Of a stretch of DNA of 64,000 nt, positions 1,495 to 45,730 are shown one piece after another. How positions within the stretch are numbered: position 1 is the first letter of the stretch; each line of letters opens with the position of its first letter. Both the position numbers and the translations under genes were made by a program. The notes under the pieces were generated by a model. It saw only the letters and a program-made list of their open reading frames with translations, was not told the origin of the DNA and ran no database searches. Origin of the DNA: Mobula hypostoma (lineage: Eukaryota); assembly GCF_963921235.1 (NCBI RefSeq), contig NC_086108.1, forward strand, positions 28,522,001 through 28,586,000, written 5' to 3'.

Positions 1495-1895
1495 ACTTCT
1501 CAAACTTCCGCTAATGCCCCACCTCCCCCTCGTACCCCGTCCATTAATTATTTATTTATATACCCACATTCTTTTTCTCTCTCTCCTTTTCCTCCCTCTG
1601 TCCCTCTCACCATACCCCTTGCCCATCCTCTGGGCTTCCCCCCTCCCCCTTTTCTTTCTCCCTAAGCCTCCTGTCCCATGATCCTTTCACATCACTTTTG
1701 CTAACCAACTGTCCAGCTCTTGGCTCCATCCCTCCCCCTCCTCCTATAATTTCGGATCTCCCCCCCGCCTCAAAACTCTTACTAGCTCTTCTTTCAGTTA
1801 GTCCTGACGAAGGGTCTCAGCCCGAAACGTCGACTGTACCTCTTCCTAGAGATGCTGCCTGGCCTGCTGAGTTCACCAGCAACTTTTATGTGTGT
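1495..1895 (+). mobile_element. Non-coding Penelope-like (pLTR-derived) insertion with hammerhead motif
   Basis: 12-bp TSD agcttagctttg at 1483-1494 and 1896-1907. Pyrimidine-rich body, then hammerhead motif and gatgctgcctggcctgctg tail. Similar to 29109-29654 in reverse orientation. Confidence 0.8.
1800..1835 (+). ncRNA. Minimal type-I hammerhead ribozyme motif (intact core)
   Basis: agtc-CTGACGA-a-gggt(ctca)gccc-GAAA-cGTC-gact. Stem I agtc/gact, stem II gggt/gccc, palindromic ACGT at helix III. Predicted cleavage after GUC (1831). Confidence 0.75.
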
Positions 1896-2480
1896 AGCTT
1901 AGCTTTGGATGTTTATTGGAGATTTATGACTGAATATTGAAGGACATGGAGGATAGGAAGATCACTGTTGAGATTATTAACTTGCAAGCGAATTTTGAGG
2001 TAAATAAGGAGCTAATGTTGGGTCTCTTAAAGAGCATTAAGGTGGATATACTCCCAGGGCTACAGGGAATATATCCCAGGTTTTGAAAGAGGCAAGAGAA
2101 GAGATTGCTGGGGCCTTGACCAATATCTTCGTGCCTTCTCTAGCCAAAGGCAAGGTCCTGAGAACTTCCGAGAGTAGCTAATGTTGATCTATTATTCAAG
2201 CAGGAAACAAGGGATAATCCTGGAAACGATAGACTGGTGAGTCTCAAATTAGTGTTAGGGAAGTTACTGCATAGAATTCTTATGGATAGGATGTATGAAC
2301 ATCTGGAAAATCATGGCCTAGGGAGAGCCAGTATGGCTTTGTGCTGGGCAAGTCATGTCTTACTAAATTAACTGTGTTTTTTGACGAGGTGACGAGGGTG
2401 ATAGATGAATATAGAGCTGTGGATTTTGCCTACATGGATTTTAGTAAGGTGTCTGATAAGGTCTCTCATGGGAGGCTCAA

Positions 2481-2660
2481 ACTGAGGATTGTTTTATTTT
2501 TATTTTATTTATTTATCGATACTGCATGGAGTAGACCCTTCTGGACCTTTAAGCTACACCGCCACAACAACCCCTGACAAACTTGATAAATCAGGGTTAA
2601 ATTTACAATGACCAATTAAACTACCCAGTACACCTATGGACTGTGGGGGAGAAACCAGTA
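2481..2660 (-). mobile_element. SINE-like 3' fragment nested in CR1
   Basis: (tttat)n tail at the left end. The ggactgtgggggagaaacc segment resembles the reverse complement of the V-SINE-type core at ~51200. Confidence 0.45.
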
Positions 2661-2697
2661 AGATACATGGAATCCACCATGAAATGGCCGTTTATTT

Positions 2698-3501
2698 TGT
2701 CACATGACCGGCAACAATGAATATATAATTAAGTCAAGTTTTATAAACAAACATAAACATTTATTAAACTCTGCTCAACAATAGCGAAAAGTATTCAAAC
2801 GACTAACTTAACCAGAAGTTAACTGCTATACGGCAACTCTGAAACAGTTCTTAAAGTGGTAAATTCGAAAACAGTCTTAAAGGGGTAAATTCGAACAATC
2901 TTAAAACGGTAAACTCGAAAGTCCAAGTGATTTACACAGTCAATAAGGAGAGACTTCTCTGGAAATGGATTTCTTCGAAGACGTGACATTACTGCTGATT
3001 CACGACGAAGGAAATAAAATGGCTTAAAGGAACTGACCTTTTCCTGTCAAATGATCACTGCAAAAACCTTCCTGATCTTACAGGGGTTATCTTAGATGCA
3101 GGTCACTATTTCTGAACGAAGATTCAATAAGGTCGATCCTGTATTAAACCGCTGAACGACACCAACTTTACTCAATCCTTCAGGTTCCCATACTTTAGTA
3201 AAGTCTTCACTCTCCAATACTAGACTTACAATAGAAAGTAAAATTCCACTTTAAACCGAAATTGCGTCATGAGACAAATATGCAGCATAACGGAGTAACT
3301 GACGAATTAAACAAGGAATCAACTGTGTAACTACAGGGGTTTCCCGTTATATACCTGCTGAGAACATGTCATCACGTGACCTCACACTGGCGGGAAAATT
3401 ACATCACCCCACCATCACAAGACCATTACATCATGCTCACAAGATACTCAATTACATCATGGTCACAAGACAGGCACAAGATACCCACAGGGTATGTAAC
3501 A
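2698..3501 (-). mobile_element. Solo LTR (~804 bp, probably Gypsy-type)
   Basis: Termini tgtcacat...atgtaaca (TG...CA, 7/8 inverted match). Interrupts CR1 coding sequence. Minus-strand TATA-like motif at ~3347-3353 and AATAAA at 2760-2765. Internal tandem repeats. No clean TSD seen. Confidence 0.7.
2842..2920. repeat. ~25-bp tandem repeat x3 inside the LTR
   Basis: aacag(t)tcttaaagtggtaaattcgaa / aacagtcttaaaggggtaaattcgaa / caatcttaaaacggtaaactcgaa. Confidence 0.8.
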
Positions 3502-4468
3502 GTATTCAGAACTGGCTTGCCCATAGAAGTCAAAGGGTAGAGATGAAAGGACTTACTCTAGCTGGAGATCTGTGATTAGTGGTGTTTTGCAGGGATCTGT
3601 ATTGGGACCTCTGCTGTTTGTGATGTATACCAATAACCTAGATGAAAATGTAGATGGGTGGGTTAATAAGTTTGAAAATGATAAAAAAAAAATTGGTGGT
3701 CTAGTGGATAGCATAGAAGATCGACAAAGAATGCAACACTACATAGATCAGTTGTAAATATGGGAGGATAAAATGGTAGATGGAATTTAACCCGGCCAGA
3801 TGTGAAGTGTTACACCTTGGTAGGTCAAATGTAAAGAGGCAAGACCCTTAAGAGTGTTGATGAGCAGAGGGATCTTGAGTCCAAGTTCATAGCTCCCTGA
3901 AAGTGATTAAACATGTTGACAGGGTGGTTAAAAAGGCTTATGGCATGCTTGCCTTTATTAGCCGAGGTATTGAGTTCCAAAGTCAGCTTTATGAAACTCT
4001 AGATAGGCTGCAGCTAGACTATTGCATATAATTCTGGTCGCCACGTTATACGAAGAATGTCAAGGCTTTGCAGAGGGTGCAGAAGAGGATGTTGCCTGGA
4101 TTAGAGGACATATGCTACAACAAGAGGTTGGACAAATTTGGGTTGTTTTCTCTGGTGCGCTGCCAGAGGCTGAGGAGAGATCCAACAACTTTGTGAGATT
4201 ATAAGAGGCACAGATAAAGTAGACAGACAATATCTTTTTCCAAGAGTGGAAACGTCTAATCCCAGAGAGCATGCATTTAAGGTGGGGGGGGGGGAAGTAA
4301 TTTTAAAGGAGATGTGAGGAGCAAGTTTTTTTTAAACACAGAGAGCGGTGAGTGCTTGGAATGTGCTGTTTAGGATAGTAGTAGCGGCAGAAACATTACT
4401 TTTAAAAGCAACACTCACAACACGCTGGAGGAACTCAGCAGGTCGGGCAGCATCCGTGAAAATGATCA

Positions 4469-4503
4469 ATCAATGTTTCGGGCCAGAACCCTTCATCAGG
4501 ACT
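4469..4503 (-). ncRNA. Minimal hammerhead ribozyme motif (helix III palindrome mutated)
   Basis: Reverse complement reads agtc-CTGATGA-a-gggttctggccc-GAAA-cATT-ga; ACGT has become ACAT (CpG-type change). Confidence 0.6.
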
Positions 4504-4553
4504 GAAGAGGGAAGGGGCAGAGGCCCTATATAGGGTATATATAGGGCTCTTCA

Positions 4554-4587
4554 GTCCTGATGAAGGGTTCCGGCCCGAAACGTTGAC
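4554..4587 (+). ncRNA. Minimal hammerhead ribozyme motif (intact core)
   Basis: gtc-CTGATGA-a-gggttccggccc-GAAA-cGTT-gac. Confidence 0.7.
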
Positions 4588-5194
4588 GGATCGTTTCCAC
4601 GGATGCTGCCTGACCTGCTGAGTCCCTCCAGCATGTTGTGAGTATTGCTTTGACCCCAGCATCTGCAGAATATTTTGTGATTACTTTTAAAAGACATTTA
4701 GATAAGCACACGGATGTGAGGAAAATGGATGAATATGGACATTGTGTAGGCAGTAGAGATTAGTTGTCCATTTGATCACTAATTTAATTGGTTCGGCATT
4801 ACAGTGGACTGAAGAGCTTGTTCATGTGCTGTGCTGGTCTGGTCTATGTTGTTGTTCTGGTTCTTTGTTCAGCAAGAACTTCAGTGAATACGCTGACTTC
4901 TGAGAAACATGAACTTTAAGGCTACTCAATGTTTCATAGATCCTGGAATTACTTTGTAAATGATTGGGTCAGTTTGGTATATGATCAGGCAACTGAAAGC
5001 ATATATGGTGAGCTTTGAGTTTGGGCTATAACAAGGTTATGGTGTAAAATGGCTTAAATTCACTTTAATTGTAATGTAAATGAACTTAACATGCAGAGCA
5101 GAGCTCCATTTACAATCTCAATAATGGGATTTAACTTTGTGGCCAGCTTCCCCATGATTTCTGTGATCTCTGTCTCAGAGGCCAATGTCGGAAC

Positions 5195-6650
5195 ACCATT
5201 GAGAGGGTGAACCCTCACAAGGCGTCAAGCCCAGGCAGTGTTCTTGGAAGGGTACTAAATGAATATTGACATTATGCAGGCAGTAGAGATTAGCTTAATT
5301 GGTCATTTGATCACTAATTTAGCTGGCCACCTGGATGGAGTGTTCAAAGATATCTTCAGCTTCTCATTGCTGTAGTCAGAGGTTCCCACCTGCTACAAAA
5401 GAGCATTGATCATGCCGGTGCTCAAGAGCAGGGGTGAGCTATCTCAATGTTTATTGCACAGTGGCCCTCACATCTGCTGTGATGAAGTGTTTTCAGAGTT
5501 TGGTCATGGTTAGAATTAACTCCTGCCTGAACAAGGACCTGGACCCACCCCAAATTTGCCTACTGCCACAACAGATCAACAGCGGAGGCAATCTCACTGG
5601 CTTTCCACTTGAATTTGGAGCATCTAGACAATGGCAAAACATACATCAGTCTGTTGCTTATCAAGTACAGCTCAGAATTCAACACCATCAACCATTCAAT
5701 TCCTATAAACAAGCTTCAAAACCTGGGCCTTTATATCTCCTTCTTCAACTAGATCATCAACTTTTTAATTGGAGATCACAGTCATGTAATATCTCCTTCC
5801 TTGCTGACAATCAACAAGAGGTGCACCTCAAGGTTGTGTGCTTAGCCCACTGCTCTACTCTCTCTACATTAAGGACTGTGACTAAACACAGCTCAAATGC
5901 CATCTATAAATTCACCAATGACACTACTATCGTTGGCAGAATCACAAATGGGGATGAAGAGTGAGCTAGATTGATTGGTTGAATGGTATCACAACAATAA
6001 CCACACACTCAGTGTCAGCAAGACCTAGGAACTGATTGCGGACTTCAGGAAGAGGACATCAATAAAGTACACACTGAGTGCTTAGCAGTGGAAAGGGTGA
6101 GTAGCTTCAAGTTTCTCAGCACACTATCTCAGAAGATTTGTCGGGGGCCTAACACGATGCCATCACAAAAAAGGCACACCAGTGGCTATACTTCATTAGG
6201 AGTTTGAGGAGATTCTCTTGAAAATTTTGACAAATATATGGTGGAGAGCATTCTGACTGGTTGCATCACTCTCCAAGGAGGAGGAAAAAAAAGAGGCAGC
6301 AGAGGGTTGCAGATTTAGCCAGTGCCATCATAGGCTGAACTCTCCTCATGATTGAGGACATCTTCAAAAGACAGTACCTCAAAAAGATGCATCCATCTTT
6401 AAGGACCCTCATCATCTGGGACATGCCCTCTTCTCTTTATTAACATCAAGAAGAATGTACAGGAGCCTGAAGACCCATAGTTATCGTTTTAGGAACAATC
6501 CTTCCCCTCCGCCATCAGATTTCTGAATGGTCCATAAACCCATGTACTACACACTACCTTGTTACTCCTTTTATTCACATTTTTTTGGTAACTTGTCATA
6601 ATTTATATTTATTGCGCAAAACAGCAAAATAAATTCTGATTCTGATCTGA
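5195..6650 (+). mobile_element. Rex1/Babar-type LINE, decayed
   Basis: VALTSAVMKCFQSLVMVRINSCL...YKFTNDTTIVGRITNGDE is Rex1-like RT; (ttctga)n 3' tail at ~6635-6648. Confidence 0.8.
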
Positions 6651-7614: not shown

Positions 7615-7669
7615 TTACTTAACTGTAGCTGATCTGTATCTTGAATCGGTAACCTGCTTTCTCTTCAAG
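7615..7669 (-). CDS. Candidate terminal exon of the host gene (speculative)
   Basis: Acceptor ctcttgctctaacag. Phase-compatible with exon 14074-14174: stop TGA at 7667-7665 in frame B, or TAA at 7617-7615 in frame A. Confidence 0.3.
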
Positions 7670-8332: not shown

Positions 8333-8905
8333 TGCAACACACAAAATGCTGGAGGAACTCTGCAGGTCAGGCAGCATCTATTGAAAAAAGTAAACAGTCA
8401 ACATTTCGTGCTAAGATCCTTCTTCAACACTGGAAAGGAAGGGGAGCAGTCAGAGTAAGAGGTTGGGGGGGAGGGGAGGAAGAAGTACAAGGTGGCAAGT
8501 GATAGGTGAAACCAGGAGAGGGGGAGGGATGAAGTAAATAGCTGGGAAGTTGATTCATGAAAGAGATAAAGGACTGGAGAATGGGGAATCTGATAGGAGA
8601 GGACAGAGGACCATGGAAGAAAGGGAAGGGGGAGGTGATGGGCAGGTAAGGAGATGAGGTAAGAGAGAAAAACAGGAAGGGTGAAGGGTGGGGAGGGGGT
8701 GGAATTACCATTACCAGAAGATCAAGAAATCAATGTTCAAGCCATCAATTTGGAGGCTATGCAGACAGAATCTAAGGTGTTGCTCCTCCAACCTGGCAGC
8801 ACAGAAGGCCATGGACTGACATGTCAGAACGGGGATGGGAAATAGAACTGAAATGGGTGGCCTGGAAGATCCCACTTTTTGTGTCAGCCAGAGCGAAGGT
8901 GCGTG
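8333..8905 (-). mobile_element. Penelope-like element 3' fragment (GIY-YIG C-terminus + pLTR)
   Basis: Minus-strand RLEEQHLRFCLHSLQIDGLNIDF resembles the conserved PLE endonuclease C-terminus. Followed by a pyrimidine-rich tract, a degenerate hammerhead (~8395-8432) and the gatgctgcctgacctgc tail. Confidence 0.75.
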
Positions 8906-9199
8906 GCAAAATGGTAAGTCAGCTAATTTGTAGTTAATAGGCAATTGGCTACCTAGTTAAGTATCAGCAGCTATTAAAAAGAAGTTAGGCTCAAGTAGAG
9001 AGGCCATTTTGGGAGGGGAATGCTGGTTGTCTAACTATGGGCTTTGGTGAGAATGGTGAGCAATAGAAGGTGAGGTAGGTCTTTCATTAGCTGTTCATCT
9101 CCTGAAAGTTTTTTAGTCATGGTTGGTGAGCTCAGAATTGTGTCATGCTCCTCTGGTGTTGGATCCCAGGAAGGCTTCCAGAGTGTCCAACTGAAGCTG

Positions 9200-10825: not shown

Positions 10826-10844
10826 ATTTCTTGTACATTCAATT

Positions 10845-12304: not shown

Positions 12305-13447
12305 CAGTAGATTCCAGTTTATTAGAACACATTGGTACCAGTATATTTAGTATGACACTCACAAATTTCTACAGATGTGCCGTGGAGAGCATTCTAACTG
12401 GTTGCAGCACTGTCTAGCATGGAAGAGCCACTGCACAGATAAAGTGCTTCAGAAAGTGATAAACTCAGCTAGTTTCATCTTAGGCACTAGTCTTCCCAGC
12501 ATCGAGGACACCTTCAAAAGGTGATGCCTCAAATAGGTGGCATCCATCATTAATGACTCTTACTATTAATGATCCCCATCACCCAGGATATGGCCTCTTC
12601 TCATTGCTACCATCAAGGAGGTACAAGAGCCTGAAAACACATGCAACATCTCAGGAACAGCTACTTCTGCTCAGCCATCAGATTTCTGAACAGACAGTGA
12701 ACCCATGAACTATTTTTTGCCCTTGCACTACTTAATTTAATTTTTCATAATATATATGCACATGCACATAATATATTTATGGTAATTTATAGTTTTGATT
12801 ATGTATTGCAATGTACTGCTGCCACAAAACAACAAATTTCATGACATTATGCAAGTAATATTAAACCTGATTCTGTATGCTGCCACGTTACTTTGACTGA
12901 CTGTAAATTAACAAAATGATTGCAGATACGTGGGCCAGCTAATGGACTGTCTTCATACAATGCTTCTGACGATTGCATCTTCCAAATCTTCATTTTCATT
13001 GTAACATTCAAGGTAATTATTGATACCTTCAAATTCTTTGTAGTTTTGTTGAAGTCGTGAAGTCATTTCATATTCACACCTGGCTGTTTCTGGCATTTCC
13101 AAGTTAGAATGTTTGAAACAGCAGAGAGCTTTACCAGTTCTGCATTGTCCTAATGCTTATGTCTCACCAACAGTGATAAAAATCGCTGTTTTTTGAACAC
13201 AAATACACACTACTGAAACTATTTGAAAACTGTTCACTCTAAGCATGGTATAATGTCTAACAGCCACACAAGTGCATGCAACTGATGCTAGTTAGAAACT
13301 GTTCCGGTACTGTCTCCTTCCCTACGGTATCCCAGATGAACTAAGGAAGTCCCAGCAATTTTCTCAATTAGCTCTTGTTCTTTAAGAGTTGTCCCAAATA
13401 AGTGGGTGCCCCAATTAACTGATGGCCCAATTCATTGGAATCCACTG
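12305..13447 (-). mobile_element. Non-autonomous Tigger/pogo DNA transposon (copy 1) with nested LINE
   Basis: TA + cagtagattccag...ttggaatccactg terminal inverted repeats. Internal sequence homologous to copy 2 (33150-33668). Confidence 0.8.
12350..12875 (+). mobile_element. Rex1/Babar-type LINE 3' fragment nested in Tigger
   Basis: ttctacagatgtgccgtggagagcattct...aaacctgattctg matches other Rex1-type 3' ends in the window. Confidence 0.75.
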
Positions 13448-20572: not shown

Positions 20573-21904
20573 CTTGTGTAAAAAGTATGGATATTGATTT
20601 CAAAATAATTTGCCCTGCCTCTTATCCAGCAATATCAATTACTTTTAGGCCTAGGTCAGTCATAGTCCATACTTAAAAACTGACAAATATGAATAATACT
20701 GAACGACAGATCGATTGAGCATAAAGGTTCTGTAAATATGACCCAGTCTCTTCTGGAAACCTCAAGCAATCGACTGCAATTGAGAGACAGAATTTAATGC
20801 TTAACTTGCGAAAGGGTTAAGTTTCAGCCACTGTCTAATAATATAAGGAGCTAAAACAAATTTCAATCTAAAATCACACATCTTCCCTTCAGATGCAGAA
20901 TTATTTTTTAACCTTGTCAACAAATAAAGGATTTGACCTTTCCAAGCATTTAAACATTAAAATGAAAATCTAAAATGATCAAATAAAGGTACAAAATGTT
21001 GCTTTAAAGCAGAGTTATTTCTGATAATAAATACAGATCAATCTGCAAGAAGCCCAGATTGGATAGTGTGGCCCAGACACTTAAAAATGACTGACCTGTC
21101 ACTGAAAATGCAACAAATAATTCCATTTGAAATGCCAAAAAGTTTGAGCTAGTATATGTCAGATTGATACAAAGCTTTAGAAACTCTGTAGTTACATGGT
21201 TAAAAGCCATATAATTTGGGTAGGCCCTTGCCTGTACAGTTTGCCATCCAATTTAGTGCAGCAATGAAATTAATGTAATTGGTTACAGTGCCTGGATTGG
21301 TAAAAGTAAAAAAAAGACAAGATGGAATTGAATTCCTGACTATTATCCAATGCTCCTGCTGGAAATGCCTGTGTGTTGGCAGGACCAGCTGTCACCTATC
21401 AGTGCAGAGACGATGATTAATAGCTTGGTGTTGTACCTCATAATACCACTGAAAAACATCTTGACTGACACAAGACAGCACACTCAGAGGGGGTGAAGAT
21501 TTAATTTCTTACAATATAGGAGAGGCCATTCAGTCCACTGAGCAAATGCTACCTTTCAGAACAATACCATCAGTCCCACTTGTATATCCAGCAGCTCTCA
21601 AGATGAAGATCCTTAATTCTCTGCCATCTATCTACACAAGGGAGTTATAGTACAGCACTAAATATCAAACAAGTGTTTCCACATGTCAGAATCTTATTAG
21701 TTCTTCTGAGATTGAAAAAAAATCTGATTAGTACTATTGTGTTAGAGTTGACATTGAAGACTGCAGTAAATTAAATATTTCTCCAATGAGCTACACCAAA
21801 GAATGACAGCAGGATTCCTGAATGGCCACATAGCTATGAATAAAGTGTGAATCAGAAATATAGCACACAAACTAGCTGTCATATCTTCTGACTATGAGTA
21901 AGAC

Positions 21905-22340
21905 AGAAAAATGCTGTCAGTCAGCACCTACAGAGGGGAATAAATAGATGTTTTGGCCCGAGACCTTTCATAAGGACTGGAAATGAATGGGGAAGAAGCC
22001 AATAAAAGAATGTGGGGAAAGAAAAGGGATATAAGCTGGAAGGTGATACGTGAAGCCAGGAAAGGGGGTGAAGTGAGAAGCTGGGAGGTGAAAGATAGAA
22101 AAGGTAAATAGCTAAAGGAGGAGGAATCTGATAGGACAGGGAAGTGAATGATGGGATAAAGGGAAGTGGGGGGGGGGACACCAGAGGGAGGTGATAGGAA
22201 GATGAGAAGAAGGGGTAAAATGGAAGACAGAATGGGGAAGGGTAAAAAAAAGGGGGTGGGGATGAAATTACCTGAAGTTGGAGAAATTAATGCTCAGGTT
22301 ACAGAACTGTAATATAAGGTGGTGTTCCTCCAATCTGTGA
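21905..22340 (-). mobile_element. Penelope-derived repeat, decayed (degenerate hammerhead ~21947-21980)
   Basis: Same organisation as 8333-8905; reverse complement gtccttatgaaaggtctcgggccaaaacatc. Confidence 0.7.
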
Positions 22341-22924
22341 GTCCTCTGACTCTCAGTCAGATAGTCTGAGGTAGGTCCTCTGACTATGAGCACTATTAGA
22401 ACACATCCAAACACCAGGAAAAATTTCACAACAAAGCAATTATTCAGGACTTTCCCACCATTATCTTTGGGTCATAATCATTAATGTGCTTTCACTTTGC
22501 ACCAACAGGCAGGAATGTGGCCATTCTTAGAGCAGTTAAAGCACAACAAGGGGGTGGAGAGAAGATTAAACACTATCTCTGGAATCAGTGCTGGGACCAG
22601 TCCATAAATCTGCTAGATTCTCAAATTTCACCAACTGTTTGAATTTGCTGATGATGCCCAGACCTACCATCTCTCTATTTTGTCTAAATGCAGTATCTTT
22701 CCCACATCCTCCTTGATGGCAAATAATCCAGATGTACCATCATTCACTATCTTTGCATTCTCCCCATACATCATCCTTGTACCAAAGCTTCAGCTGCCTT
22801 CTGACCTGCAGCCTTCAAACTAACTCCATTTCTCTCCCTGGTCATTCTCTGACAACAGTATTTTTGTAACCTCAGTGATTTTTTTTTCATCTTTTAAAGA
22901 TAGCTATGTGATCAGTTTATTTTG

Positions 22925-23711: not shown

Positions 23712-23830
23712 TCTCCCCCCACTTCCTTTCCAGTCCTGAAGAAGGGTCTCGTCCCAAAATATTGACTGTTCCATAAATGCTGCCTGACCTGCTGAGTTCC
23801 TCCAGCATTTCAGCACTTGGTGTTTAAACA
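23712..23830 (+). mobile_element. Penelope-derived short repeat with mutated hammerhead
   Basis: cagtc-CTGAAGA-agggtctcgtccc-aAAA-tatt-gactg followed by atgctgcctgacctgctgagttcctccagc. Confidence 0.7.
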
Positions 23831-24279: not shown

Positions 24280-25580
24280 GTTTATCACCAACAATGATGA
24301 CACGGCCTATAGTGGAGGTGGAAGAGCTTGAGGTCTGGTGCCAGGCAAATAACTTCTTCCCTAACGTCCAAAGTCAAAGTAAATTTATTATCGAAGTACA
24401 TATATTGTATGTCACCATATGCAACACAAAGATTTGTTTCCTTCTGGACATACTCAATAAATCCAATAACCATAATTGAATTAATGGAAGACCACAACCA
24501 ACAAGACAGACAAACCCCCCCGTGTGCAGAAGACAACAAACTGTGCAAATACAAAAGAAAAATACTAACAGTACATACATAAATAAGCAACAAATATTGA
24601 GAACATATGAGGAAAAGTCCTGGAAAGTGAGTCCATAGGTTGTGGGAACAGTTCAGTGATGGGGCAAATGAAGTTGACTGAAGTTATCCTTCCTGCTTCA
24701 AGAGCCTGATGGTTGAGGGGTAATAAGTGTTCATGAACCTGGTGGAGTGAGTCCTGAGGTTCCTGTGCCTTCTTCCTGATGGCAGCAGCAAGAAGAGGGC
24801 ATGACCTGGGTGGTGGTCCCTGATAATGTCAACAAGACGAAGGAGATGGTTATTGACTTTAGCAGAACACACACCATTCATTCCTATACATTGGCGAAAA
24901 AGCAGTTTCAAACTCCTGGGAGCGTACATCTCACACAACCTCTTATGGTGCCAGAACACATCCCACACCGTCATCAGGAAAGCTCACCAACACCTCTACT
25001 TTCTGAACAAGCTGAAGAGAGCTGGACTATAAACATCCATTCTCATGTCATTCTACAGATGTGCAGTGGAGAGCATCCTAACAAACTGCATCACTGCTCA
25101 GTATGGTGGACAGGAAGGCTCTAATGCGGAGATATATATATATATAGAAAGCTACTGGAAACGGACGAGTGACATCCTGAAGGGGTCCACTCACCCTTCT
25201 AATGGACTGTATGTCCCACTCCCATTAAGGAGGAGGCTACGTAGCATCTATACCAGGACCACCAGATTCAAAAACAGTTACTTTCCCCAAGCAATAAGGC
25301 TGATCAACACCTCCACCCACTAACCCACTAACCTCTCCATGCCCCCAACCCCTACTATATAATTTCCTGTCAGCCACCTTATATACAGTCACTCCTTATG
25401 GACGCACAATTAATCCAAGTATATAAGCTATTTTGAGTATTTATACTTATTGTCTTTATTATTATTATTATGCTCTTTATCTTTTGTGGGTTTTTTGCTG
25501 CATCGGATCTGGAGTAACAATTACTTTGTTCTCCTTTGCACATGTGTGCACGAAAGGACATTAAGTAACCTTGAATGTTT
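24280..25580 (+). mobile_element. Rex1/Babar-type LINE interrupted by an antisense short element
   Basis: ITNNDDTAY..NVNKTKEMVIDF..KAHQHLYFL..FYRCAVESILT..RTTRFKNSYFPQAIRLIN. Confidence 0.85.
24369..24823 (-). mobile_element. Rex1/Babar-related 3' fragment nested antisense in LINE
   Basis: caaagtcaaagt tail; near-TSD taacgtc (24362-24368) / taatgtc (24824-24830); HHPGHALFLLLPSGRR on the minus strand. Confidence 0.75.
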
Positions 25581-27088: not shown

Positions 27089-29108
27089 CTATAAACATGT
27101 GATGGTGCTTAAATGGAAGGATGGAAGGATGCTAAGAGCATTTCAATAAAAAATGTCAGACATCATAAAATAACTCAGTGTCTAGTGTTGTCAAGACTCT
27201 AAAGGCTAAATAATTCTTAGGACATGTGAATCATAAATCAAAGTATTTCTGATACAATTATGGAAACTAATCCACCCCACCAATTAAGTGAATGGTACTA
27301 GAAGCCTATGAATATATCATAGGCAGTTGAACTAACAAGAGGAGATCAAAGTTCCAGTGAAAGCACATCAAGGTTGTCACGAATTACGTGAATTTCCTCA
27401 CTGAATAAACACCTTAGAATTTAAAATTACTGAATTAGATGTGATCCTATATTGGTTAGCAATGAAGCTGATCTGATGCAGAATATTGGATCACTAACTA
27501 TTATGAATAAATTACTTTGATAAAAGGCAGAATGGTGTCAAGACATTAGTTTAGATATACCCCAGTGTGTAAAAAATGGCAAGGTGGCACTGCATGCCAG
27601 ATCTGTGATTGTTTGGATTCAGGTTGGAGAGGAAAGACATTCTGCTTCACATGAATCAGGACTCTGCAGCCACCTAGCATAAAAAATACATCCTCAACTT
27701 CAAATCAGATAAGCTTGAAAACAATCCGTGACTGGGGTGCTGCTTTGTAGTGGATTTTCCACAAGGTATTTGGGAATAATATACTGGGCATGAAGTAAAT
27801 CTAGTGAGCAACTATACATGGTGGCAGAGGTGAATTTAGTGGAATTCCAGTTAATTGGAACACATTGGGACCAGTACATTTTGACCTAATAAGCGACTGC
27901 CCCAATTAGCCAAAGTTTTATGGAAATAATTCAAAGATATAATAGACAAACTACTGTTTAATTGACTAACAATTTATATATTTCTTTTTATTTTTTTTGC
28001 TCAGCATAACAAAACTCTCAATTTCCAGATACATTTACATTTCTTCCCCACTCAGATATCAGCTATCAGAACACTTCCATCAAAATAATCACCACAACAT
28101 CCTGTACAAAAGCCCTTATTACTACAGCAGACAGGTTTACATCTACACACTGCAGAAAAGGTTGCCATGTTTTATGAGAACTATTTGTTTTTGAGTGTAC
28201 CATACATGCCAAAAAGTCCAAAGGAATGTATTCCATGATTAATTTACGCCAACCAAAAAGTCCAGGGGTCTTATCGGATATCCAACAAAGTGAAATGTTC
28301 TTCCTCGCACAAAAAGCCAGGAAGTTAAAAAGTTTTTTCTGATGTGCATTAATAATACGACTGCTGGGAAGCCTAGGAGAAAAGGCACTGAGACCAGTTC
28401 AAGCTCCATCTTCAGAATATTTTGCATTTCACCCAAAATATCATTCCAGTATGCCTGAAGTTTGGGACAAGTCCAAAAACAGTGGGTGAAAGTTCCAGTA
28501 TTTACTTTACATTTAGAACACACTGGAGAAACCCCGTCTTAAATTTCGAGAGACGATCTAGAGTCAGATGGGCTCTTTGCAGAATTTTGAGTTGCAATGC
28601 TTTAGTTCTATTACAAACAGAAATTTCCTTTGCATTATCACAGATGTCTTCCCATGTTTCAGCTGTAATTTCTACTCCCAGCTCTTCCTCCCAGACCCTT
28701 CCCAGCTGCTCAGCCTCTCCACAAGAACATTCCCTCAGGATGCCGTAAAAAGTACTAATGGAGACTTCACCCTTAGAACAAAATACCCTCTTTTCTATGT
28801 CAGAACTATAGAAATCAGTTAACAATGATGTTTTCTCCTGTATATAATCTCTTATCTGAAAGAAACAAAAAAGATCCTTGTTTGCTATGTTAAATTTCTG
28901 TACTATTTGACTAAAAGATATCATCGTTCCTTCATCAAACAAATCTCCTAGATGGAAAATACCCTTAGAAATCCAAAGTTTAAATCCAGAATCCATTATG
29001 CCAGGCTGAAAATCTGGACTGCCGGTTATTGGAGTGAAGGGTGATAATTTCGCTGCGTTAACCTCAATTTGTCACACCGCCCTCCAAGCCCTGACTGTAT
29101 TAATTGTT

Positions 29109-29654
29109 AACATGAGGAAGTCTGCAGGCGCTGGAAATTCAAGCAACACACACAAAATGCTGGTGAATGCAGCAGGCCAGGCAGCATCTATAGGAAGAGG
29201 TGCAGTCGACGTTTCAGGCCGAGACCCTTCGTCAGGACTAACTGAAGGAAGAGCTAGTAAGAGATTTGAAAGTGGGAGGGGGAGGGGGAGATCAAAAACG
29301 ATAGGAGAAAACAAGAGAGGGAGGGATGTAGCCAAGAGCTGGACAGGTGATTGGCAAAAGGGATATGAGAGGATCATGGGACAGGAGGCCCAGGGAGAAG
29401 GAAAAAGGGGGAGGGGAGAAAAACCCAGAGGATGGGCAAGGGGCCCCCATCCGTTATTTATTTATATCTCATACCCCATCCGTTATTTATTTATATCTCT
29501 AACTTCTGCTAATGCCCCACCTCCCCCTCATACCCCATCTGTTATTTATTTATATAAACACATTCTTTCCCTCTCTCTCTCTCTCTCCCCTTTTTCTCCC
29601 TCTGTCCCTCTGACTATACCCCTTGCCCATCCTCTGGGTTTTTCCCCCCTCCCC
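29109..29654 (-). mobile_element. Penelope-derived element with partial inverted copy, inside L1 ORF2
   Basis: Reverse complement of the 1495-1895 family. 29445-29654 is an inverted, rearranged copy (ccccatccgttatttatttatat-like x3; ccccttgcccatcctctgggt inverted to ~29423-29443). Confidence 0.85.
29204..29239 (-). ncRNA. Minimal hammerhead ribozyme motif (intact core)
   Basis: Reverse complement: agtc-CTGACGA-agggtctcggcct-GAAA-cGTC-gact. Confidence 0.7.
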
Positions 29655-32113
29655 ACTAGAGTGAAAAGTAGTGGTGATAAAGGGCAGCCCTGCCAGCTGA
29701 CCCTCAGAATACTAAAATTATCCGACCTAACACCATTAGTGAAAATCGCAGCCAAAGGATCATTATAAAGAACCTTTACCCACTTAATAAAATTATTGCC
29801 CAAACCAAATCATTCTAAAGTGAAAAAAAGATACGGCCATTTGACACGATCAAAGGCCTTTTCTGCATCTAAGGAAACCACCAAGTCGTCCACTGCCTGT
29901 TGCTGACATGCCTGAATCACATTAAGTAATCTTCTGATATTGTTAGATGATCTACGGCCTTTTACAAAACCCGTTTGATCCTCTTTTATGATAAAAGGTA
30001 ACACAGTTTCTAATCACAACGCTAAGGTTTTAGATAAAATTTTGAAGTCAACATTTAACAATGAAATAGGCCTGTAGGAGGGACAATCTTCACGGCTCTT
30101 TCCTTTCTTAAGAATTAGGGAGATATTAGCTTCTCTCAATGATGGTGGGAGGAGACCACAATTAAATGCATGATTGAACATGTTTAGCATAGGCTCTGAT
30201 AATAACCCTGTGATCTCTTTATAGAATTCACTAGTGAGTCCATCAGGATCAGGGGTCTTCCCACTTTGGAGCTGTCTCACAGCTTCCTGTATCTCATGTA
30301 TAGATAACAGAGCATTGAGGAGGAACTCCTGTTCAGAAGAAATGCCTAGGAGATCTAAATTCCTGAAAAAGGACTCCATCCTAGATTGTCCATCATTACA
30401 TTGCTCAGATTGATACAATTTAGAATAAAAATTCTTAAACACAACATTAAACATTTTAGAATTACTAGTGAGGGCTCCTGCCCCATCCCTAATTGAAGCA
30501 ATAGTCTGAGAGGCATTTTTCTTTCTAGCTAAATATGCCAAATACCTACCTGGTCTTTCACCATCTTCTAACAATCATTGTTTAGCAGATGTAAATTTTC
30601 TTTTGGCTTGTGTAAGTAAAGAGTTTAGTATATAGCGTAGGGCTGTGATATTCTGTAACCTGGCTGCAGAAGGCTTATTAATATAATCCTTTCCAGCTGC
30701 CGCAAGCCTTGCTTGCACTAGGCGCTGATGTTCTGCAGCTTGTCGCTTCTTACCAACAGAGTAGGAGATAATTAATCCCCTTGCATAGGCCTTAATGGTT
30801 TCCCAGAGCATCGATGGACTACTAGCAGATCTGAAATTAATAGATAGGAACGTTTTGAATTCGGAAGTAAAGTAGTCTATAAATTTATTATCTTTTAGAA
30901 TAAAAGGATTCAGCCTCCAATGTCTAGATCGTGCTGAATTATCTTTGGGCTTAATATTTAAATATACTGCTGCATGGTCAGAAATAGCAATATTTCCAAC
31001 TGTGCTGGATACAACTAAATCTAGGAGCATTTTGGGGGTTAGAACAAAGTCTATTCTGGTGTAACACTTGTGTGGATTAGAAAAAAATGTGAAGTCTTTG
31101 TCTGAGGGATATAACAACCTCCAGACATCCACAAGTCCTAGTTCTCCACATAAGCCCATGAATTGTTTGGACTGTGAGGAGAGCAATGGGGGACCACCAG
31201 GCACTCTGTCCATCAATGCATCCATGAGACAATTAAAATCCCCACCTAAAATAATATTTTGTATTGAAAAGCTTGTAAGTTTGGAAAAAGCATCTATTAG
31301 GAATTTGAGAGAATGAGCTGGAGGGCAGTAAACATTGAGAATACCATATTCCTCTCCATATATTGACGCCTTAACAATCACAAATCTCCCATACCTATCC
31401 TTAATGCAGTCTAATAACTTAAAAGGTAAGTTCTTCCTAATAAAAATGGCGACCCCCCCCCCCCACTCCTGGTATTAAAAGATGAAAAATAGACTTGATC
31501 AAATCCACTCTGTTGCAGTTTTAGATGTTCTTTATCATTTAAATTAGTCTCCTGCAATGAGGCTGTGTCCACCCTTTCCTTTTTCAGGTTCAGTAGGATT
31601 TTCTTTCTCTTGATTGGTGAATGACTCCCCTTAATGTTCCAAGTGCACAATTTTAATATATTACTGGTCATAACCCCTTAAAAACAATCATTTGACTCCA
31701 GAGGAGAAGAAACCTGACTTAAGATCAGCCGAGCAGCAATAAGTTAATAAAAAAAACACAGAAAAAACAAGGCACCAACAGCGCTAAACAAGAGGACATA
31801 CCCCACTCTTAAAGGGGATATCTGAACCTTCCAGCACCCCATATTTTGCCCCACTGCCAATACGGCATTTAACATAGTCAAAAATGAAAACAGGGCATAA
31901 TTTGTGAATCCACCGATTTGTTACCATCATGTTTAAGCTCCTTCAGGCTAGAGCAGCAGCGCTAATTTAAACAAATAATGAAACAATATTAATCAAAACA
32001 AACACGTAACCCATCCTATAAGATATCTTGCCGTCGAGTAATGAAAAGGTAAAATAAAGCAACCATCGAGTATGTTATCATTCATAACCAGCGCTACACT
32101 ATGTATAGATTCT

Positions 32114-32860
32114 TTAGCCCAATGTGTCCACAAAAGTTTTAACTTTGTCAAGAGAATCAAATATCTTGGTGGCCCCATTGTAGGTGATTTTCAGCGCCGC
32201 TGGGTATAGCATAAAGTACTGGATTCCGGATTCTCTCAGCCGCTTCTTTACCTGGTCGAATTCCTTGCGCTTCCGAATAACAGCTGCCGAAAAATCTTGA
32301 AAAAACATAAGTCTGGATCCCTCATATATTAAAGCCAGGGCATCAGTCCCGTGGCGTCTCGAAGCCTCCATCACTCTTTGCTTATCACCTGAATTATGGA
32401 ACCGCATGAGGACATGTCGAGGGTGTTGGGTGTGGGCCCGGTTTTGGAGCCAGCGTACGATGAACTCTTTCCACTTTAATACGTCCAACCTTGGTTTCCA
32501 AATCAAGGAAATTAGTCAGCCAGCCCTCAAAAAACTTCACAGGCTGGCTGCCTTCTGTACCTTTAGGTAGACGGATGATCCGTATGTTCTTCCTGCTACC
32601 TCTATTCTCAAGATCATCAAGATGGTCAGACAGGCTTTGAACTTGCTTTTCTAGCGCCCGGATGCGGCTTTGAGCTTGATCACCTACAGTCTCTACCGTG
32701 GAGACTCGGCCCAGTCGTTCTTGTATCAAGATTGTTACGCTCCAATGTGTGGTTCTGGAGTATTAGAGAGAGTGGACCCAGCTTCTCGTCCATCACTTTG
32801 GATATGTTCTCCGCAGCTCAAAAAAAATACTCATCAATGTTTATGTTATTAAATCTGACA
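32114..32860 (-). pseudogene. L1 ORF1p, frameshifted
   Basis: LDDLENRGSRKNIRIIRLPKG..ERVHR; FFQDFSAAVIRKRKEF..MLYPAALKITYNG. 5' boundary approximate. Confidence 0.85.
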
Positions 32861-37734: not shown

Positions 37735-37930
37735 GACTGGCAGATGCTTGTGAACAAAGAACAATCAATGCAAAGACACAGCAGGTCAGGCAATATCAGT
37801 GGCGAAGGAAACAGAATCAACGTTTCAGGTCAAGGACCCTTTATCAGAACTGGAAGTATACTATGACAAGCATAATGAGTTGTGGTGTGGGGGTGGGGGG
37901 TTAGGGATGGAGTACAAAGGGAATGTCTGC
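37735..37930 (-). mobile_element. Penelope-derived repeat with mutated hammerhead (~37816-37851)
   Basis: Reverse complement agtt-CTGATAA-agggtccttgacct-GAAA-cGTT-gatt; one core G is changed. Confidence 0.6.
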
Positions 37931-38261: not shown

Positions 38262-39842
38262 CAAGTTTCCCCCGCCATCCGAAGGTAGAGCGTTCCTATG
38301 AAACGGTTCGTAAGCTGAAATGTCGTAAAGCGAAGAAGCAATTACCATTTATTTATATGGGAAAAATTTGTGAGCGTTCACAGACCCAAAAATAACCTAC
38401 CAAATCATGCCAAATAACACATAAAACCTAAAATAACAGTAACATATAGTAAAAGCAGGAATGATATGATAAATACACAGCCTATATAAAGTAGAAATAC
38501 TTTTCCACAATCATTACTGAACTGTTCTTCATAGCGAAAATTTCACACAAGCACCGTTGCCAGAAAATCTCACACAAGCGCTGGTGGGAAAAACATGGCG
38601 CAAGTGCTCTCCAGTAACCTTTAAGCTATGAAGCTGCCAAATCATACCAAATAACACATAAAAATACACAGCCGATATGAAGTAGTAATAATGTATGTAC
38701 AGTGTAGTATCACTTACCGGAATCGGGAAGACAGCGCCGAGCACACTGATGATAGTGTGTTAGGCTGAGTCGGAGTTTGGGTGGTGCAGTGGCCCCCACC
38801 CTCCAGGCCGCTGACCGATACATTGCCGCAAAGCATGCAGGGGTCCAGCGGTAGCCGGGAGGCACACAGCACATCTTTAAGAAAAAAGCCGAAATAAACA
38901 TGCTAATTAATTAGGTGCTGCCCGGCATGTAATTGTTGGCCCAGATCAGTGCCGATTTCCGATTGCGTCACCTCTGATCTGGGCCGACAATTACATGTCG
39001 GCGGCACCTAATTAATTAGCATGTTTATTTCGGCTTTTTTCTTAAAGATGTGCTGTGTGCCTCCCGGCTACCATTGCATTCTCCGCGAATCGGTATTTGT
39101 CCGTGGCCTGGGGTTTGGGGTGGTGGGACATGGGGGTGTCATCTCGTCATCGTCTGTTTCCATTAGAGCAGGCAGCTCATCTTCCTCTATCTCTGCCCGC
39201 CTCGACGTCGAAGGTTGAGGTTTGTCGTCTGCTGTGGCTGATGTGGAAGGCTTGCTTGACTGTTGAGCCTCATGTATTTTTCTACCACACAGTTCTTTGT
39301 AAGGACTCAGACCATCCTACAAATATCCCCTAAACCGACATACCCTTTCAATATTAAAGTCGTACTTTATCATTACTCATTCGGTTTCAATTGTTATCCT
39401 TTTTTCTTCCAATTGCATCAGCTCTTTGACCGTCAGTTCTTGGTCATGGGATGCCAAAACCTCTTCAACATCATCTTCGTCAACTTCCACAAGCCAAACT
39501 CACTTTGTCCTTACTTCGTTCACCACGATCGAAACGCTTAATTATGTCTAGTTTTACACTAAGTGTAATACCCTTACGAGCTCTTTTAGGCTTTTCCAAT
39601 ACCATAGAACTCATCTTGCAAACGGCTGCTCACAGGCATGTGTTTAAGCAATGCCGGCGAGAATCCAGGGGAGAGCGGCTGCTTGGGGCGTGCACTGCCT
39701 TTTATCATGCGCTGATTTTTTCGCGCGCTTTTTTTTCGTAACAGTGAAAACACCTTCTGAAAGCAAAAACAGGGTACTGATGTAGGTCTTTCGTAACAGT
39801 GAGGTTTCGTATATCGAACGTTTGAAAAGCTGGGGACACCTG
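38262..39842 (-). mobile_element. Internally deleted Tigger/pogo DNA transposon
   Basis: TA-flanked imperfect TIRs caagtttcccccgc / gctggggacacctg. From ATG 39614 reads MSSMVLEKPKRARKGITLSVKLDIIKRFDRGERSKD (CENP-B/psq HTH start), joined out of frame to VEVDEDDVEEVLASHDQELT (Tigger C-terminus). Confidence 0.9.
38850..39072. repeat. Near-perfect ~100-bp-arm palindrome
   Basis: 38850-38949 is nearly the exact reverse complement of 38974-39072; 24-nt spacer. Confidence 0.95.
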
Positions 39843-41745: not shown

Positions 41746-42266
41746 ATTAGCAAATAGAAGATGCGTCCAATTTTGCATCAACTATTCTAGGCTTATTGCA
41801 TTCACTGCTTCTCTGAGAGTACTATTTTTGAAAGTGATGACTCACATTGGAAAATGAGACGTCACTCATTCTTGGATACCTGTTGTGAATCGCTACCTTA
41901 GGTGATTCATCTTTCCATGCTCGTTCACTTTCCAGGTTAGTTAGGACACTGACTGCCATAAAGACCTGATAGCTATTCTGCTTGAGAATGATGAACAAAA
42001 ACTATTCATCCAAAATTATTTTCTGGTTTGTTTGTGTTGGTATTATACTACCAAATCCTCAGTGCCTCCCATATGGATCTTTGAAAGGAAAACCTGGTGG
42101 GCCTACTTCTGACATAAATGTCAGAAAATAAAAGGTCAGAGTGCATCTAATAAATGTAGAGAAGAACTGTTTGCCAGTTGATCACTTAACTTCTTTGAAT
42201 GAACATTGTATGAGCCTTAGTGATACATTTTTTCAAACAGTACAATCTCAACATTATAAGTATTTT

Positions 42267-44791
42267 AAACATAGAAACATAGAAAATAGGTGCAGGAGTA
42301 GGCTATTCGGCCCTTCGAGCCTGCACCGCCATTTATTATGATCATGACTGATCATCCAACTCAGAACCCCGCCCCAGCCTTCCCTCCATAACCCCTGATC
42401 CCCGTAGCCACAAGGGCCATATCTAACTCCCTCTTAAATATAGCCAATGAACTGGCCTCAACTGTTTCCTGTGGCAGAGAATTCCACAGATTCACCACTC
42501 TCTGTGTGAAGAAGTTTTTCCTAATCTCGGTCCTAAAAGGCTTCCCCTTTATCCTCAAACTGTGACCCCTTGTTCTGGACTTCCCCAACATCGGAAACAA
42601 TCTTCCTGTATCTAGCCTGTCCAATCCCTTTAGGATTTTATACGTTTCAATCAGATCCCCCCTCAATCTTCTAAATTCCAACGAGTACAAGCCCTGTTCA
42701 TCCAGTCTTTCTTCATATGAAAGTCCTGCCATCCCAGGAATCAATCTGGTGAACCTCCTTTGTACTCCCTCTATGGCAAGGATGTCTTTCCTCAGATTAG
42801 GGGACCAAAACTGCACACAATACTCCAGGTGTGGTCTCACCAAGGCCTTGTACAACTGCAGTAGTACCTCCCTGCTCCTGTACTCGAATCCTCTCGCTAT
42901 AAATGCCAGCATACCATTCGCCTTTTTCACCGCCTGCTGTACCTACATGCCCACTTTCAATGACTGGTGTATAATGACACCCAGGTCTCGTTGCCCCTCC
43001 CCTTTTCCTAATCGGCCACCCTTCAGATAATAATCTGTTTTCCTATTTTTGCCACCAAAGTGGATAACTTCACATTTATCCACATTAAATTGCATCTGCC
43101 ATGAATTTGCCCACTCACCCAACCTATCCAAGTCACTCTGCATCCTCTTAGCATCCTCCTCACAGCTAACACTGCCACCCAGCTTCGTGTCATCCGCAAA
43201 CTTGGAGATGCTGCATTTAATTCCCTCATCCAAGTCATTAATATATATTGTAAACAACTGGGGTCCCAGCACTGAGCCTTGCGGTACCCCACTAGTCACC
43301 GCCTGCCATTCTGAAAAGGTCCCGTTTATTCCCACTCTTTGCTTCCTGTCTGCTAACCAATTCTCCATCCACATCAATACCTTACCCCCAATACCGTGTG
43401 CTTTAAGTTTGCACACTAATCTCCTGTGTGGGACCTTGTCAAAAACCTTTTGAAAATCCAAATATACAACATCCACTGGTTCTCCCCTATCCACTCTACT
43501 AGTTACATTCTCAAAAAATTCTATGAGATTCGTCAGACATGATTTTCCTTTCACAAATCCATGCTGACTTTGTCCGATGATTTCACCGCTTTCCAAATGT
43601 GCTGTTATCACATCTTTGATAACTGACTCCAGCAGTTTCCCCACCACCGACGTTAGGCTAACCAGTCTATAATTCCCCGGTTTCTCTCTCCCTCCTTTTT
43701 TAAAAAGTGGGGTTACATTAGCCACCCTCCAATCCTCAGGAACTAGTCCAGAATCTAACGAGTTTTGAAAAATTATCACTAATGCATCCACTATTTCTTG
43801 GGCTACTTCCTTAAGCACTCTAGGATGCAGACCATCTGGCCCTGGGGATTTATCTGCCTTCAATCCCTTCAATTTACCTAACACCACTTCCCTACTAACA
43901 TGTATTTCGCTCAGTTCCTCCATCTCACTGGACCCTCTGTCCCCTACTATTTCTGGAAGATTATTTATGTCCTCCTTAGTGAAGACAGAACCAAAGTAAT
44001 TATTCAATTGGTCTGCCATGTCCTTGCTCCCCATAATCAATTCACCTGTTTCTGTCTGTAGGGGACCTACATTTGTCCTTACCAGTCTTTTCCTTTTTAC
44101 ATATCTATAAAAGCTTTTACAGTCAGTTTTTATGTTCCCTGCCAGTTTTCTCTCATAATCTTTTTTCCCCTTCCTAATTAAGCCCTTTGTCCTCCTCTGC
44201 TGAACTCTGAATTTCTCCCAGTCCTCAGGTGAGCCACTTTCTCTGGCTAATTTGTATGCTTCTTCTTTGGTATTGATACTATCCCTAATTTCTCTTGTCA
44301 GCCACGGGTGCACTACCTTCCTTGATTTATTCTTTTGCCAAAGTGGGATGAACAATTGTTGTAGTTCATCCATGCAACCTTTAAATGCTTGCCATTGCAT
44401 ATCCACCGTCAATCCTTTAAGTGTCATTTGCCAGTCTGTCTTAGCTAATTCACGTCTCATACCTTCAAAGTTACCCCTCTTTAAGTTCAGAACCTTTGTT
44501 TCTGAATTAACTATGTCACTCTCCATCTTAATGAAGAATTCCACCATATTATGGTCACTCTTACCCAAGGGGCCTCTCACGACAAGATTGCTAATTAACC
44601 CTTCCTCATTGCTCAAAACCCAGTCCAGAATAGCCTGCTCTCTAGTTGGTTCCTCGACATGTTGGTTCAAAAAACCATCCTTCATACATTCCAAGAAATC
44701 CTCTTCCTCAGCACCTTTATCAATTTGGCTCACTCAATCTACATGTAGATTGAAGTCACCCATTATAACTACTGTTCCTTTATTGCACACA
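42267..44791 (-). mobile_element. Young 5'-truncated CR1 LINE
   Basis: Nearly uninterrupted ORF2; CpGs retained; (ttctatgt)n-type 3' tail at 42267-42288. Confidence 0.95.
42361..44785 (-). pseudogene. CR1 ORF2 (partial APE + RT), in frame with two nonsense codons
   Basis: MGDFN, SDH, YLDFQKVFD, GVPQGSVLGP, FADD. TGA at 44736-44734 (probably from TGG) and TAG at 42945-42943 (probably from CAG). The 596-aa and 189-aa ORFs are in the same frame. Confidence 0.9.
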
Positions 44792-45099
44792 TTTTCTTGA
44801 ATGAGTTGCACAAAATTGTTTAACATTATAAATTAATGTGTTTTTCTCCTCTTTACGTGACATCTAAGTTAGAGGGACTCATTTTTAGTACAACTTTTTT
44901 TATACATTTCATAAATATAGATGCAGTGGAAGAAAATTAACTCAATATTTCTGTGCATTACTAGAGATAAAACACTGAACCAATTGGAGCCAAAGTAAGC
45001 TATAGCAGATTAGTTCTTGGAGCTGATGAATGCTATTTCAAATTGAATGCAACACCATTGAACACATTTCTGTTTGTATAGTTAAAAGGCAAAAAATTG

Positions 45100-45730
45100 C
45101 AGAGACTGCAAATCTGAAATAAAAGTAGAAAATGTTGAATAACTCAGGTCAGTCAGCATCTGTAGAGAGAGAAATAGAATATCTCACGTCACCCACAAGA
45201 TAGAAAAGTGAGAAAGTAAGCATGCTTTATGATGTAAGTATGAGAGAACAAAGGAAGCAATGCTTTTGATTACACCTAGTTAATGGATAAATTTAGGGAA
45301 AAGAAAAAAGAAAGCTGGGACACTGAGAGGCAGAAGGTGCTGGAAATCAGAAACAAAAAAAAAGATTGGAAATTCTTAGCTGAACAAATCGGATCTGTAG
45401 AGAGAGAAAAAATGAGATGATGTTACTGGTGGATTACCTTACATCAGACAGGCCAGTTTTAGATCCAAAACATTTTAGACACAGAACATCAATATTGTTC
45501 TCTCTCCATAGATACTGCCTGAACTGAAAAATATTTCCAACATTTTCAGATTTCCAGCATCTACCACTGCTTGACTTTCAATTTTCTTCGTCCTCTCCCA
45601 CCCCTTCTTCTCCCTGAGACTTATAAAATTCATGTTTCCAGTTCTGATGAGGGATCACTGACTTGAAGGAGTGACTATGTTCTCTTTTCACAAATCCTGC
45701 CTAACCTATGGAACACCTGCAAAAACTTTG
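45100..45730. mobile_element. Old, nested fold-back Penelope-derived repeats
   Basis: ggtgctggaaatc..tctgtagagagagaa (45335-45410) is inverted to ttctctctccataga..gatttccagcatc (45498-45562). An outer pair lies at ~45100-45175 / 45640-45730 with a degenerate ctgatga. Confidence 0.55.

Follow-up and report, generated by a model that had tools for sequence, protein, structure and literature searches.

Hammerhead ribozyme motifs dispersed in a 64-kb stretch of the Mobula hypostoma genome probably lie in truncated 3' ends of a Penelope-like retrotransposon

The stretch of DNA analysed here (the window) comprises 64,000 nt of the Mobula hypostoma genome (assembly GCF_963921235.1, contig NC_086108.1, positions 28,522,001–28,586,000, forward strand), and it carries nine hammerhead ribozyme motifs, all of which (9/9) belong by alignment to a single repeat family. 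The original prediction, made from the letters of the window, had reported about nine recurrences of the motif, and all nine were found in their places and aligned as one family. Judging from the sequence, these copies are very probably the dead-on-arrival 3' ends of an endonuclease-positive Penelope-like element (PLE), a retrotransposon present as several subfamilies of different age. The order common to the copies is an endonuclease stop codon, an untranslated region (UTR) of about 290 nt, a minimal hammerhead and a tail. Ribozyme-bearing PLEs are a kind of element already described, and the family in the window is a further member. Copy lengths vary between about 100 and 590 bp, with 5' ends that are all different and 3' ends that are shared; the end of the reading frame is reached in four of the nine copies (8333–8920, 21899–22378, 1495–1895 and the inverted piece 29496–29654), and none of the seven tandem arrays of the window overlaps a copy. 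Therefore, since variable lengths, shared 3' ends, coding ends and the lack of tandems are found together, they point to a 5'-truncated autonomous element and not to a separate retrozyme family, so that the earlier proposal of a separate non-coding, retrozyme-type retroposon did not hold. The copies and relics, with their flanking duplications, are as follows.

1495–1895, plus strand: 5'-truncated PLE insertion of 401 bp (the 1800 copy), with the last endonuclease codons (stop 1512–1514), a pyrimidine-rich 3' UTR, the hammerhead and 64 nt past the cut
1483–1494 (left) and 1896–1907 (right): target-site duplication of 12 bp flanking 1495–1895
1799–1836, plus strand: best-preserved minimal hammerhead, with stem I 1799–1803/1832–1836 (5 bp), CUGACGA 1804–1810, extra A 1811, stem II 1812–1815/1820–1823 (4 bp), GAAA 1824–1827, palindrome 1827–1830 and C17 at 1831
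4409–4679: head-to-head fold-back of two PLE 3' ends within a CR1 3' end, the left arm ending 63 nt and the right arm 95 nt past position 17
4395–4408 (left) and 4680–4693 (right): target-site duplication of 14 bp flanking 4409–4679
4465–4506, minus strand: hammerhead of the 4503 copy (C3 at 4499) with an intact core, its helix III palindrome disrupted at a CpG
4550–4591, plus strand: hammerhead of the 4554 copy (C3 at 4557), which keeps core and palindrome, has U17 and one stem I mismatch and lies within the fold-back hairpin
8333–8920, minus strand: 5'-truncated PLE (the 8432 copy), with a frameshifted endonuclease C-terminus at about 8920–8714, stop 8713–8711, 3' UTR and a decayed hammerhead (C3>U at 8427, two of four stem II pairs)
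21899–22378, minus strand: 5'-truncated PLE (the 21980 copy), with endonuclease C-terminus (stop 22270–22268), 3' UTR and a decayed hammerhead (G5>U, G12>A)
21887–21898 and 22379–22390: target-site duplication of 12 bp flanking 21899–22378
23720–23815, plus strand: short 3'-end relic, hammerhead with G12>A
29108–29654: young-subfamily PLE, internally inverted, within an L1-type ORF2; minus arm 29108–29443, filler 29444–29495, plus-strand piece 29496–29654, which begins near the endonuclease stop; the minus arm holds the 29239 hammerhead (C3 at 29235, intact core, G-U at 10.1–11.1, long tail)
37738–37863, minus strand: older relic (the 37851 copy), hammerhead with G8>A
45630–45747, plus strand: relic whose hammerhead is the most decayed (A15.1>G, U16.1>G)
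57703–57784, plus strand: tail-only relic of the young subfamily with the long end, starting about 20 nt past the cut site
48341–48392, plus strand: tail-only relic with the short end, found by the tail-inclusive profile
45478–45565, plus strand: old tail-only relic, found by the tail-inclusive profile
45122–45174, minus strand: old tail-only relic, found by the tail-inclusive profile (E 1.5e-06)

The relics are clustered, four of them lying within 45122–45747. At about 45325–45565 there is a possible very old head-to-head pair, in which a decayed copy on the minus strand, bearing a CTGATGT box, stands beside the plus-strand tail relic 45478–45565. This further candidate (about 45325–45450, minus strand) was not counted: it scored 60 against the neighbouring tail relics, where the shuffled maximum was 41, but it was not above shuffle against the 37851 copy and had no match to the covariance model.

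The pattern CTGANGA-N4-30-GAAAC matched seven times in the window, against 1.36 matches expected (at least seven in 0 of 100 shuffles), and four of the seven belong to the family (C3 at 1804 and 4557 on the plus strand, 4499 and 29235 on the minus strand), whereas the remaining three do not. The covariance model built from the nine copies gave them scores of 40.7–59.6 bits, by construction, while the next match reached 13.8 bits, and it detected no tenth ribozyme-bearing copy in the window. When the downstream tail was included, the profile added the four tail-only relics, which the original prediction had not listed, and one doubtful match (E 0.044), and the same profile gave no match at E<=1 on the reversed window. 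A scan of the window with Rfam contained no hammerhead among its 10 matches at E<=10, and no viral, GTDB or JGI metagenome contig matched the exact 34-letter degenerate motif.

Intactness was scored over 11 core bases per copy. All of them are kept in four of the nine copies (1800, 4503, 4554 and 29239), the helix III palindrome is kept in five, and core and palindrome together in three (1800, 4554 and 29239). The 10.1–11.1 pair is G-C in five copies and G-U in three. Only the 1800 copy combines a full core, G10.1–C11.1, the palindrome and a GUC site, with cleavage predicted after C1831, where it had correctly been placed before. The three cores first described as intact do keep all their bases, but the G-U pair of the 29239 copy and the U17 and stem I mismatch of the 4554 copy qualify that description; the other copies had been called mutated or degenerate, which is right for five with core changes but not for 4503, which lost the palindrome alone. 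U at position 17 is present in six of the nine copies and is possibly a subfamily trait rather than a result of CpG decay, because published minimal hammerheads often carry U17.

It is already known that a minimal type I hammerhead resides in the pseudo-long terminal repeats (pseudo-LTRs) of metazoan PLEs, as described by Cervera and De la Pena in 2014 (PMC4209133). According to the portion of that paper used here, this motif is marked by a conserved G10.1–C11.1 pair, a palindromic 15–16 region and one additional base separating position 9 from 10.1. Among fishes it was found in elements of the Xena, Poseidon and Neptune groups, where truncated elements mostly hold a single motif and a close pair on opposite strands occurs at times. 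The copies in the window share the core boxes, the NUH site, the extra base, G10.1–C11.1, the palindromic 15–16 region and the short helix I, and they too are mostly single motifs in truncated elements, with close opposite-strand pairs. The assignment of the motif to this class thus fits the published consensus, the difference being a short helix II (4 bp) in the window.

Regarding the anatomy of the insertions, on which the original prediction is silent, target-site duplications of 12, 14 and 12 bp are present at three of eight junction pairs (1495–1895, 4409–4679 and 21899–22378), and 0 of 2000 random window pairs shared at least 12 bases. Counted past position 17, the 3' ends form two classes about 32 nt apart, one at about 63–65 nt (the 1800 and 8432 copies and the 4503 arm) and the other at about 95–99 nt (the 4554 arm and the 29239 copy); the 57703 relic ends at the place matching the long end of 29239. 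The 21980 copy, which carries an internal deletion, stops 48 nt past position 17. Inverted structures are found at two insertions (4409–4679 and 29108–29654), the second including filler and a short overlap. The two arms of the fold-back are separated by a short TA-rich filler (4526–4546), part of which forms a palindrome with the beginning of the right arm. The window, where all copies are truncated, has no direct pseudo-LTRs in partial tandems. Copies starting at the cut site were considered as well, but the two placeable tail-only copies do not show this, since their first bases lie about 10 and 20 nt beyond it.

The longest coding remnant (8333–8920) is spread over three frames, which read D-L-P; A-T-H-F...H-P...D-M-S-V-H-G-L-L; and R-L-E-E-Q-H-L...G-L-N. 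The 8333–8905 copy had been described as joining the motif to a Penelope GIY-YIG C-terminus, and this joining of motif and coding remnant is confirmed, although the remnant is split as just stated. We compared the pieces by eye with the endonuclease alignment in Fig. S2 of Craig et al. 2021 (PMC8557442), in whose rows used here the four Neptune sequences fit better than those of Penelope and Poseidon; the features common to the remnant and the Neptune rows, again by eye, are HF, a second H (H...H), R..E, a hydrophobic stretch and G-L-N. The Naiad rows are similar too, but the Naiad endonuclease is N-terminal and canonical hammerheads are absent there. In addition, contigs extend before position 1492 into the same C-terminal-motif-like sequence (206 in run X1, 154 in X5 and 21 in X16), and since they continue upstream, the 1800 copy is what truncation has left of a longer coding element. 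The parent element most likely belongs to the Neptune clade.

Several observations speak against a PLE parent of this kind. No duplication of at least 8 bp was present at five of the eight junction pairs examined, and the window lacks a reverse transcriptase, a full-length element and the GIY-YIG motif itself. A Pfam search of both frames returned 0 families, word searches with the remnant peptide gave no match, the best hit of the peptide in a PDB search had E 1.2, and an Atlas search with it gave no usable match. Full phmmer returned only two matches, tandem-repeat proteins with weak single-stretch scores, which we regard as spurious. The clade assignment rests on an eye comparison of the C-terminus, and five of the nine copies are too short to show a coding end, so for those a short non-autonomous master is possible. 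Blank database searches with pieces of less than 30 residues are weak evidence either way.

As to how such copies could have arisen, published PLE work suggests that the GIY-YIG domain would nick the two target strands about 12–14 nt apart. In all likelihood, a Neptune-like protein with reverse transcriptase and endonuclease activity would then carry out target-primed reverse transcription on uncleaved RNA, from one of two sites downstream of the ribozyme; copies would run past the cut site because priming lies downstream of the ribozyme on uncleaved RNA. Priming on both strands could have given the fold-back at 4409–4679 and the inversion at 29108–29654. The hammerhead would belong to the pseudo-LTR of the parent element, and its role may well be to cut the parent's tandem transcripts, only as a dimer formed through the 4-nt palindrome and with help from an element protein, a proposal we hold with less assurance than the priming itself. 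Lone dispersed copies would be mostly silent and decaying by CpG deamination.

These features can be placed beside known elements. In the part of Craig et al. 2021 used here, Neptune PLEs have C-terminal R..E and G-L-N motifs, after which comes a 3' region with a hammerhead, and they show 5' truncation, an adjacent inverted copy, an optional tail of 30–40 bp and variable target-site duplications, all of which have counterparts in the window, the C-terminal motifs by eye. In contrast, reverse transcriptase, linker zinc finger and GIY-YIG motif are missing from the window, where the clade is judged by eye from the C-terminus, and the insertions lie outside (TA)n microsatellites. For the Poseidon element PAc of Anolis carolinensis (Frangieh et al. 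2024, PMC11167929, as far as that source is drawn on here), both strands were cut and extended in vitro, and reverse transcription started at two adjacent internal sites. The likeness is in the genomic copies, which run beyond the ribozyme's cut and stop at either of two neighbouring sites; the differences are that PAc belongs to another clade and that its open reading frame (ORF) begins in stem II. In the 1800 copy, a frame through stem II and the tail (1807–1895, plus strand) is open, but it has an early stop in other copies, so this falls short of demonstrating a PAc-like ORF start within stem II.

The alternative that survives best, though we think it improbable, is a non-autonomous retrozyme or SINE-like family derived from a PLE pseudo-LTR and spreading through self-cleaved circular RNAs with PLE proteins acting in trans. 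Five of the nine copies are without a coding end, and in run X1 the ribozyme and tail have a summed contig depth of 1.4e7, about 4–5 times that of the upstream UTR (2.9e6), although 5' truncation, together with older subfamilies matching only the conserved end, would explain this step. Non-LTR retrozymes (bioRxiv 10.64898/2026.07.22.740005 and PMC7229834, in the parts used here) likewise have a type I hammerhead and a sequence related to PLE pseudo-LTRs, and tandem retrozymes are reported from the sole chondrichthyan genome of the former. However, retrozymes are tandem non-coding units, while the copies in the window are dispersed and variably truncated, each with its own 5' end and four of nine with a coding end; the motif is in no tandem array, and the copies end 63–99 nt beyond the cut site and not at it. 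It seems to us, therefore, that truncated PLE ends describe the family better.

The same depth data bear on abundance. In run X1, the unique flank had a depth of 12.8 against about 1.4e7 in the ribozyme bins (ratio of about 1.1 million), and in run X5 it had 48.1 against 3.0e7 (ratio of about 0.63 million); since summed contig depth is no copy number, these ratios give an order of magnitude only. They suggest, as a rough figure, 10^5–10^6 related copies in the genome, and the hammerhead density in the window (9 per 64 kb, about 140 per Mb) corresponds to a few hundred thousand per multi-gigabase genome. The earlier claim of a high-copy family was thus right, the number being very high by contig depth. 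It is apparently far over the 4,000 copies of coelacanth and 9,000 of Xenopus given in the portion of PMC4209133 used here, although those are descriptor counts and ours is a depth estimate. The whale shark genome preprint (10.1101/443036), in the part consulted, also reports that CR1 and Penelope-like elements are expanded.

It is quite doubtful, even more so than the retrozyme alternative, that the intact ones among the dispersed copies are under selection as live ribozymes, cutting host transcripts either singly or in trans. Core and palindrome are indeed kept in three of the nine copies, and the core differs less than the tail (7/99 vs 35/271), but this gap is not significant (Fisher p=0.14) and the copies were selected by their core. 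Related sequence also occurs in two runs that we guess to be RNA (X15 and X16), as contigs that are silent on expression, strand and cut ends. Stem covariation, named beforehand as a check that could refute the ribozyme claim, was not above shuffle in this small set (0.192 vs a shuffled mean of 0.213, with 421 of 500 shuffles as high), which is a weak test on nine decayed copies; stem pairs hold in 78.7% of cells, with two-sided change in only one cell. The absence of covariation above shuffle argues against selection on the dispersed copies but does not bear on whether the parent element's hammerhead functions. Between the two arms of the fold-back there are differences at 10 of 101 sites, seven of the ten at CpG, and among the matches listed, C>T at 11.1, a CpG, makes up about 36–45% of DNA contig depth (45% in X1 and 36% in X5).

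Predicted folds point the same way. The 1800 monomer is predicted to form a rod in which G5–G8 pair with 15.2–17 (probability 0.93–0.94), and the probability of its stem I falls to 0.02 in the full insert; predicted stem I is also lost in the insert context of the 29239 and 4554 copies, the latter lying inside a hairpin of -195 kcal/mol, so that it is essentially absent from all three. A double-hammerhead dimer of the 1800 copy can be drawn at -17.9 kcal/mol, but the best dimer fold is at -30.2 kcal/mol, and the active form is 12 kcal/mol higher. Nearest-neighbour energies omit tertiary contacts and were run without an active-ribozyme control, which is a further mark against our reading, and they are suggestive only. 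With this limit, they suggest that most dispersed copies are not working ribozymes and that lone copies would fold into inactive forms.

Published results, as far as the sources are used here, agree with the predicted inactivity of lone copies, since cleavage is slow and dimer- or protein-dependent. The schistosome minimal hammerhead showed no cleavage as a monomer and low cleavage as a dimer (PMC4209133). Cleavage by the PAc hammerhead was protein-assisted and dispensable for insertion in vitro, with no RNA-seq ends at the site in the data reported there (PMC11167929), and only one of nine Xenopus hammerhead dimers cleaved, leaving eight of nine uncleaved (bioRxiv 10.64898/2026.07.22.740005). 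To speculate, copies locked by the four-pair G5–G8/15.2–17 helix might be released by an element protein or by a second transcript paired through the palindrome, which would amount to conditional RNA cutting across the genome; we consider this a long shot. If true, expression of the element would trigger the cutting of host pre-mRNAs, and core-intact copies number about 3 per 64 kb, or about 47 per Mb if the window is typical.

That the resemblance of this repeat UTR to a hammerhead is due to chance is scarcely credible. In favour of chance, Rfam has no hammerhead match, covariation is absent among the nine, and nine copies of one repeat are a single evolutionary observation, but two core boxes, two stems, the palindrome and the extra base are all present, at the position where PLEs reportedly carry a hammerhead.

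As it stands, the finding is one of annotation, namely a PLE family of very high abundance with a pseudo-LTR hammerhead that Rfam misses. No literature specifically on elasmobranch PLE hammerheads was found among the matches listed; the alignment of PMC4209133, in the part used, has no chondrichthyan row, and its supplement file 2 had 0 matches for shark or skate names. The chondrichthyan data of bioRxiv 10.64898/2026.07.22.740005 or the supplement of PMC4209133 may already contain the family of the window. The role of the PLE hammerhead is called unclear in PMC8557442 (in the part consulted), and several hundred thousand copies of graded age, if the estimate is right, would be good test material for it. 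With such abundance, one could look for junctions piling up at the cut site, measure how fast the core decays and compare subfamilies for covariation, and insertion junctions could reveal whether cleaved RNA serves as a template in vivo. The fold-back at 4409–4679, with a tailed and a tail-less arm within one 14-bp duplication, would be a clean genomic example of two-strand, two-site priming.

The window also contains other elements. A broken L1/Tx1-type element (about 28500–32760, minus strand), with an ORF1-like piece, an APE endonuclease and the start of a reverse transcriptase, is interrupted by the PLE at 29108–29654, where a target-site duplication was not found. A CR1-type LINE ORF2 at 42361–44733 (minus strand) has two long open frames (596 and 193 aa; RVT_1 E 8.7e-33) and is probably young. 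A CR1 fragment is split by a further inserted element, a stretch at about 2640–3500 that is unmatched elsewhere in the window and includes a 24-bp tandem repeat of 3.2 copies (2841–2920). A 58-bp tandem repeat of 2.7 copies lies at 53060–53211. Fragments of another LINE family, with related reverse transcriptase C-termini according to self-matches, are at 5827–6549, 12311–12875, 24376–24828, 48938–50941 and 63852–64000. Finally, 38850–39072 is a MITE-like near-perfect palindrome of 223 bp with 90% arm identity, whose Rfam match to mir-7131 (47.9 bits) is below the gathering threshold of 74 and probably reflects the hairpin only.

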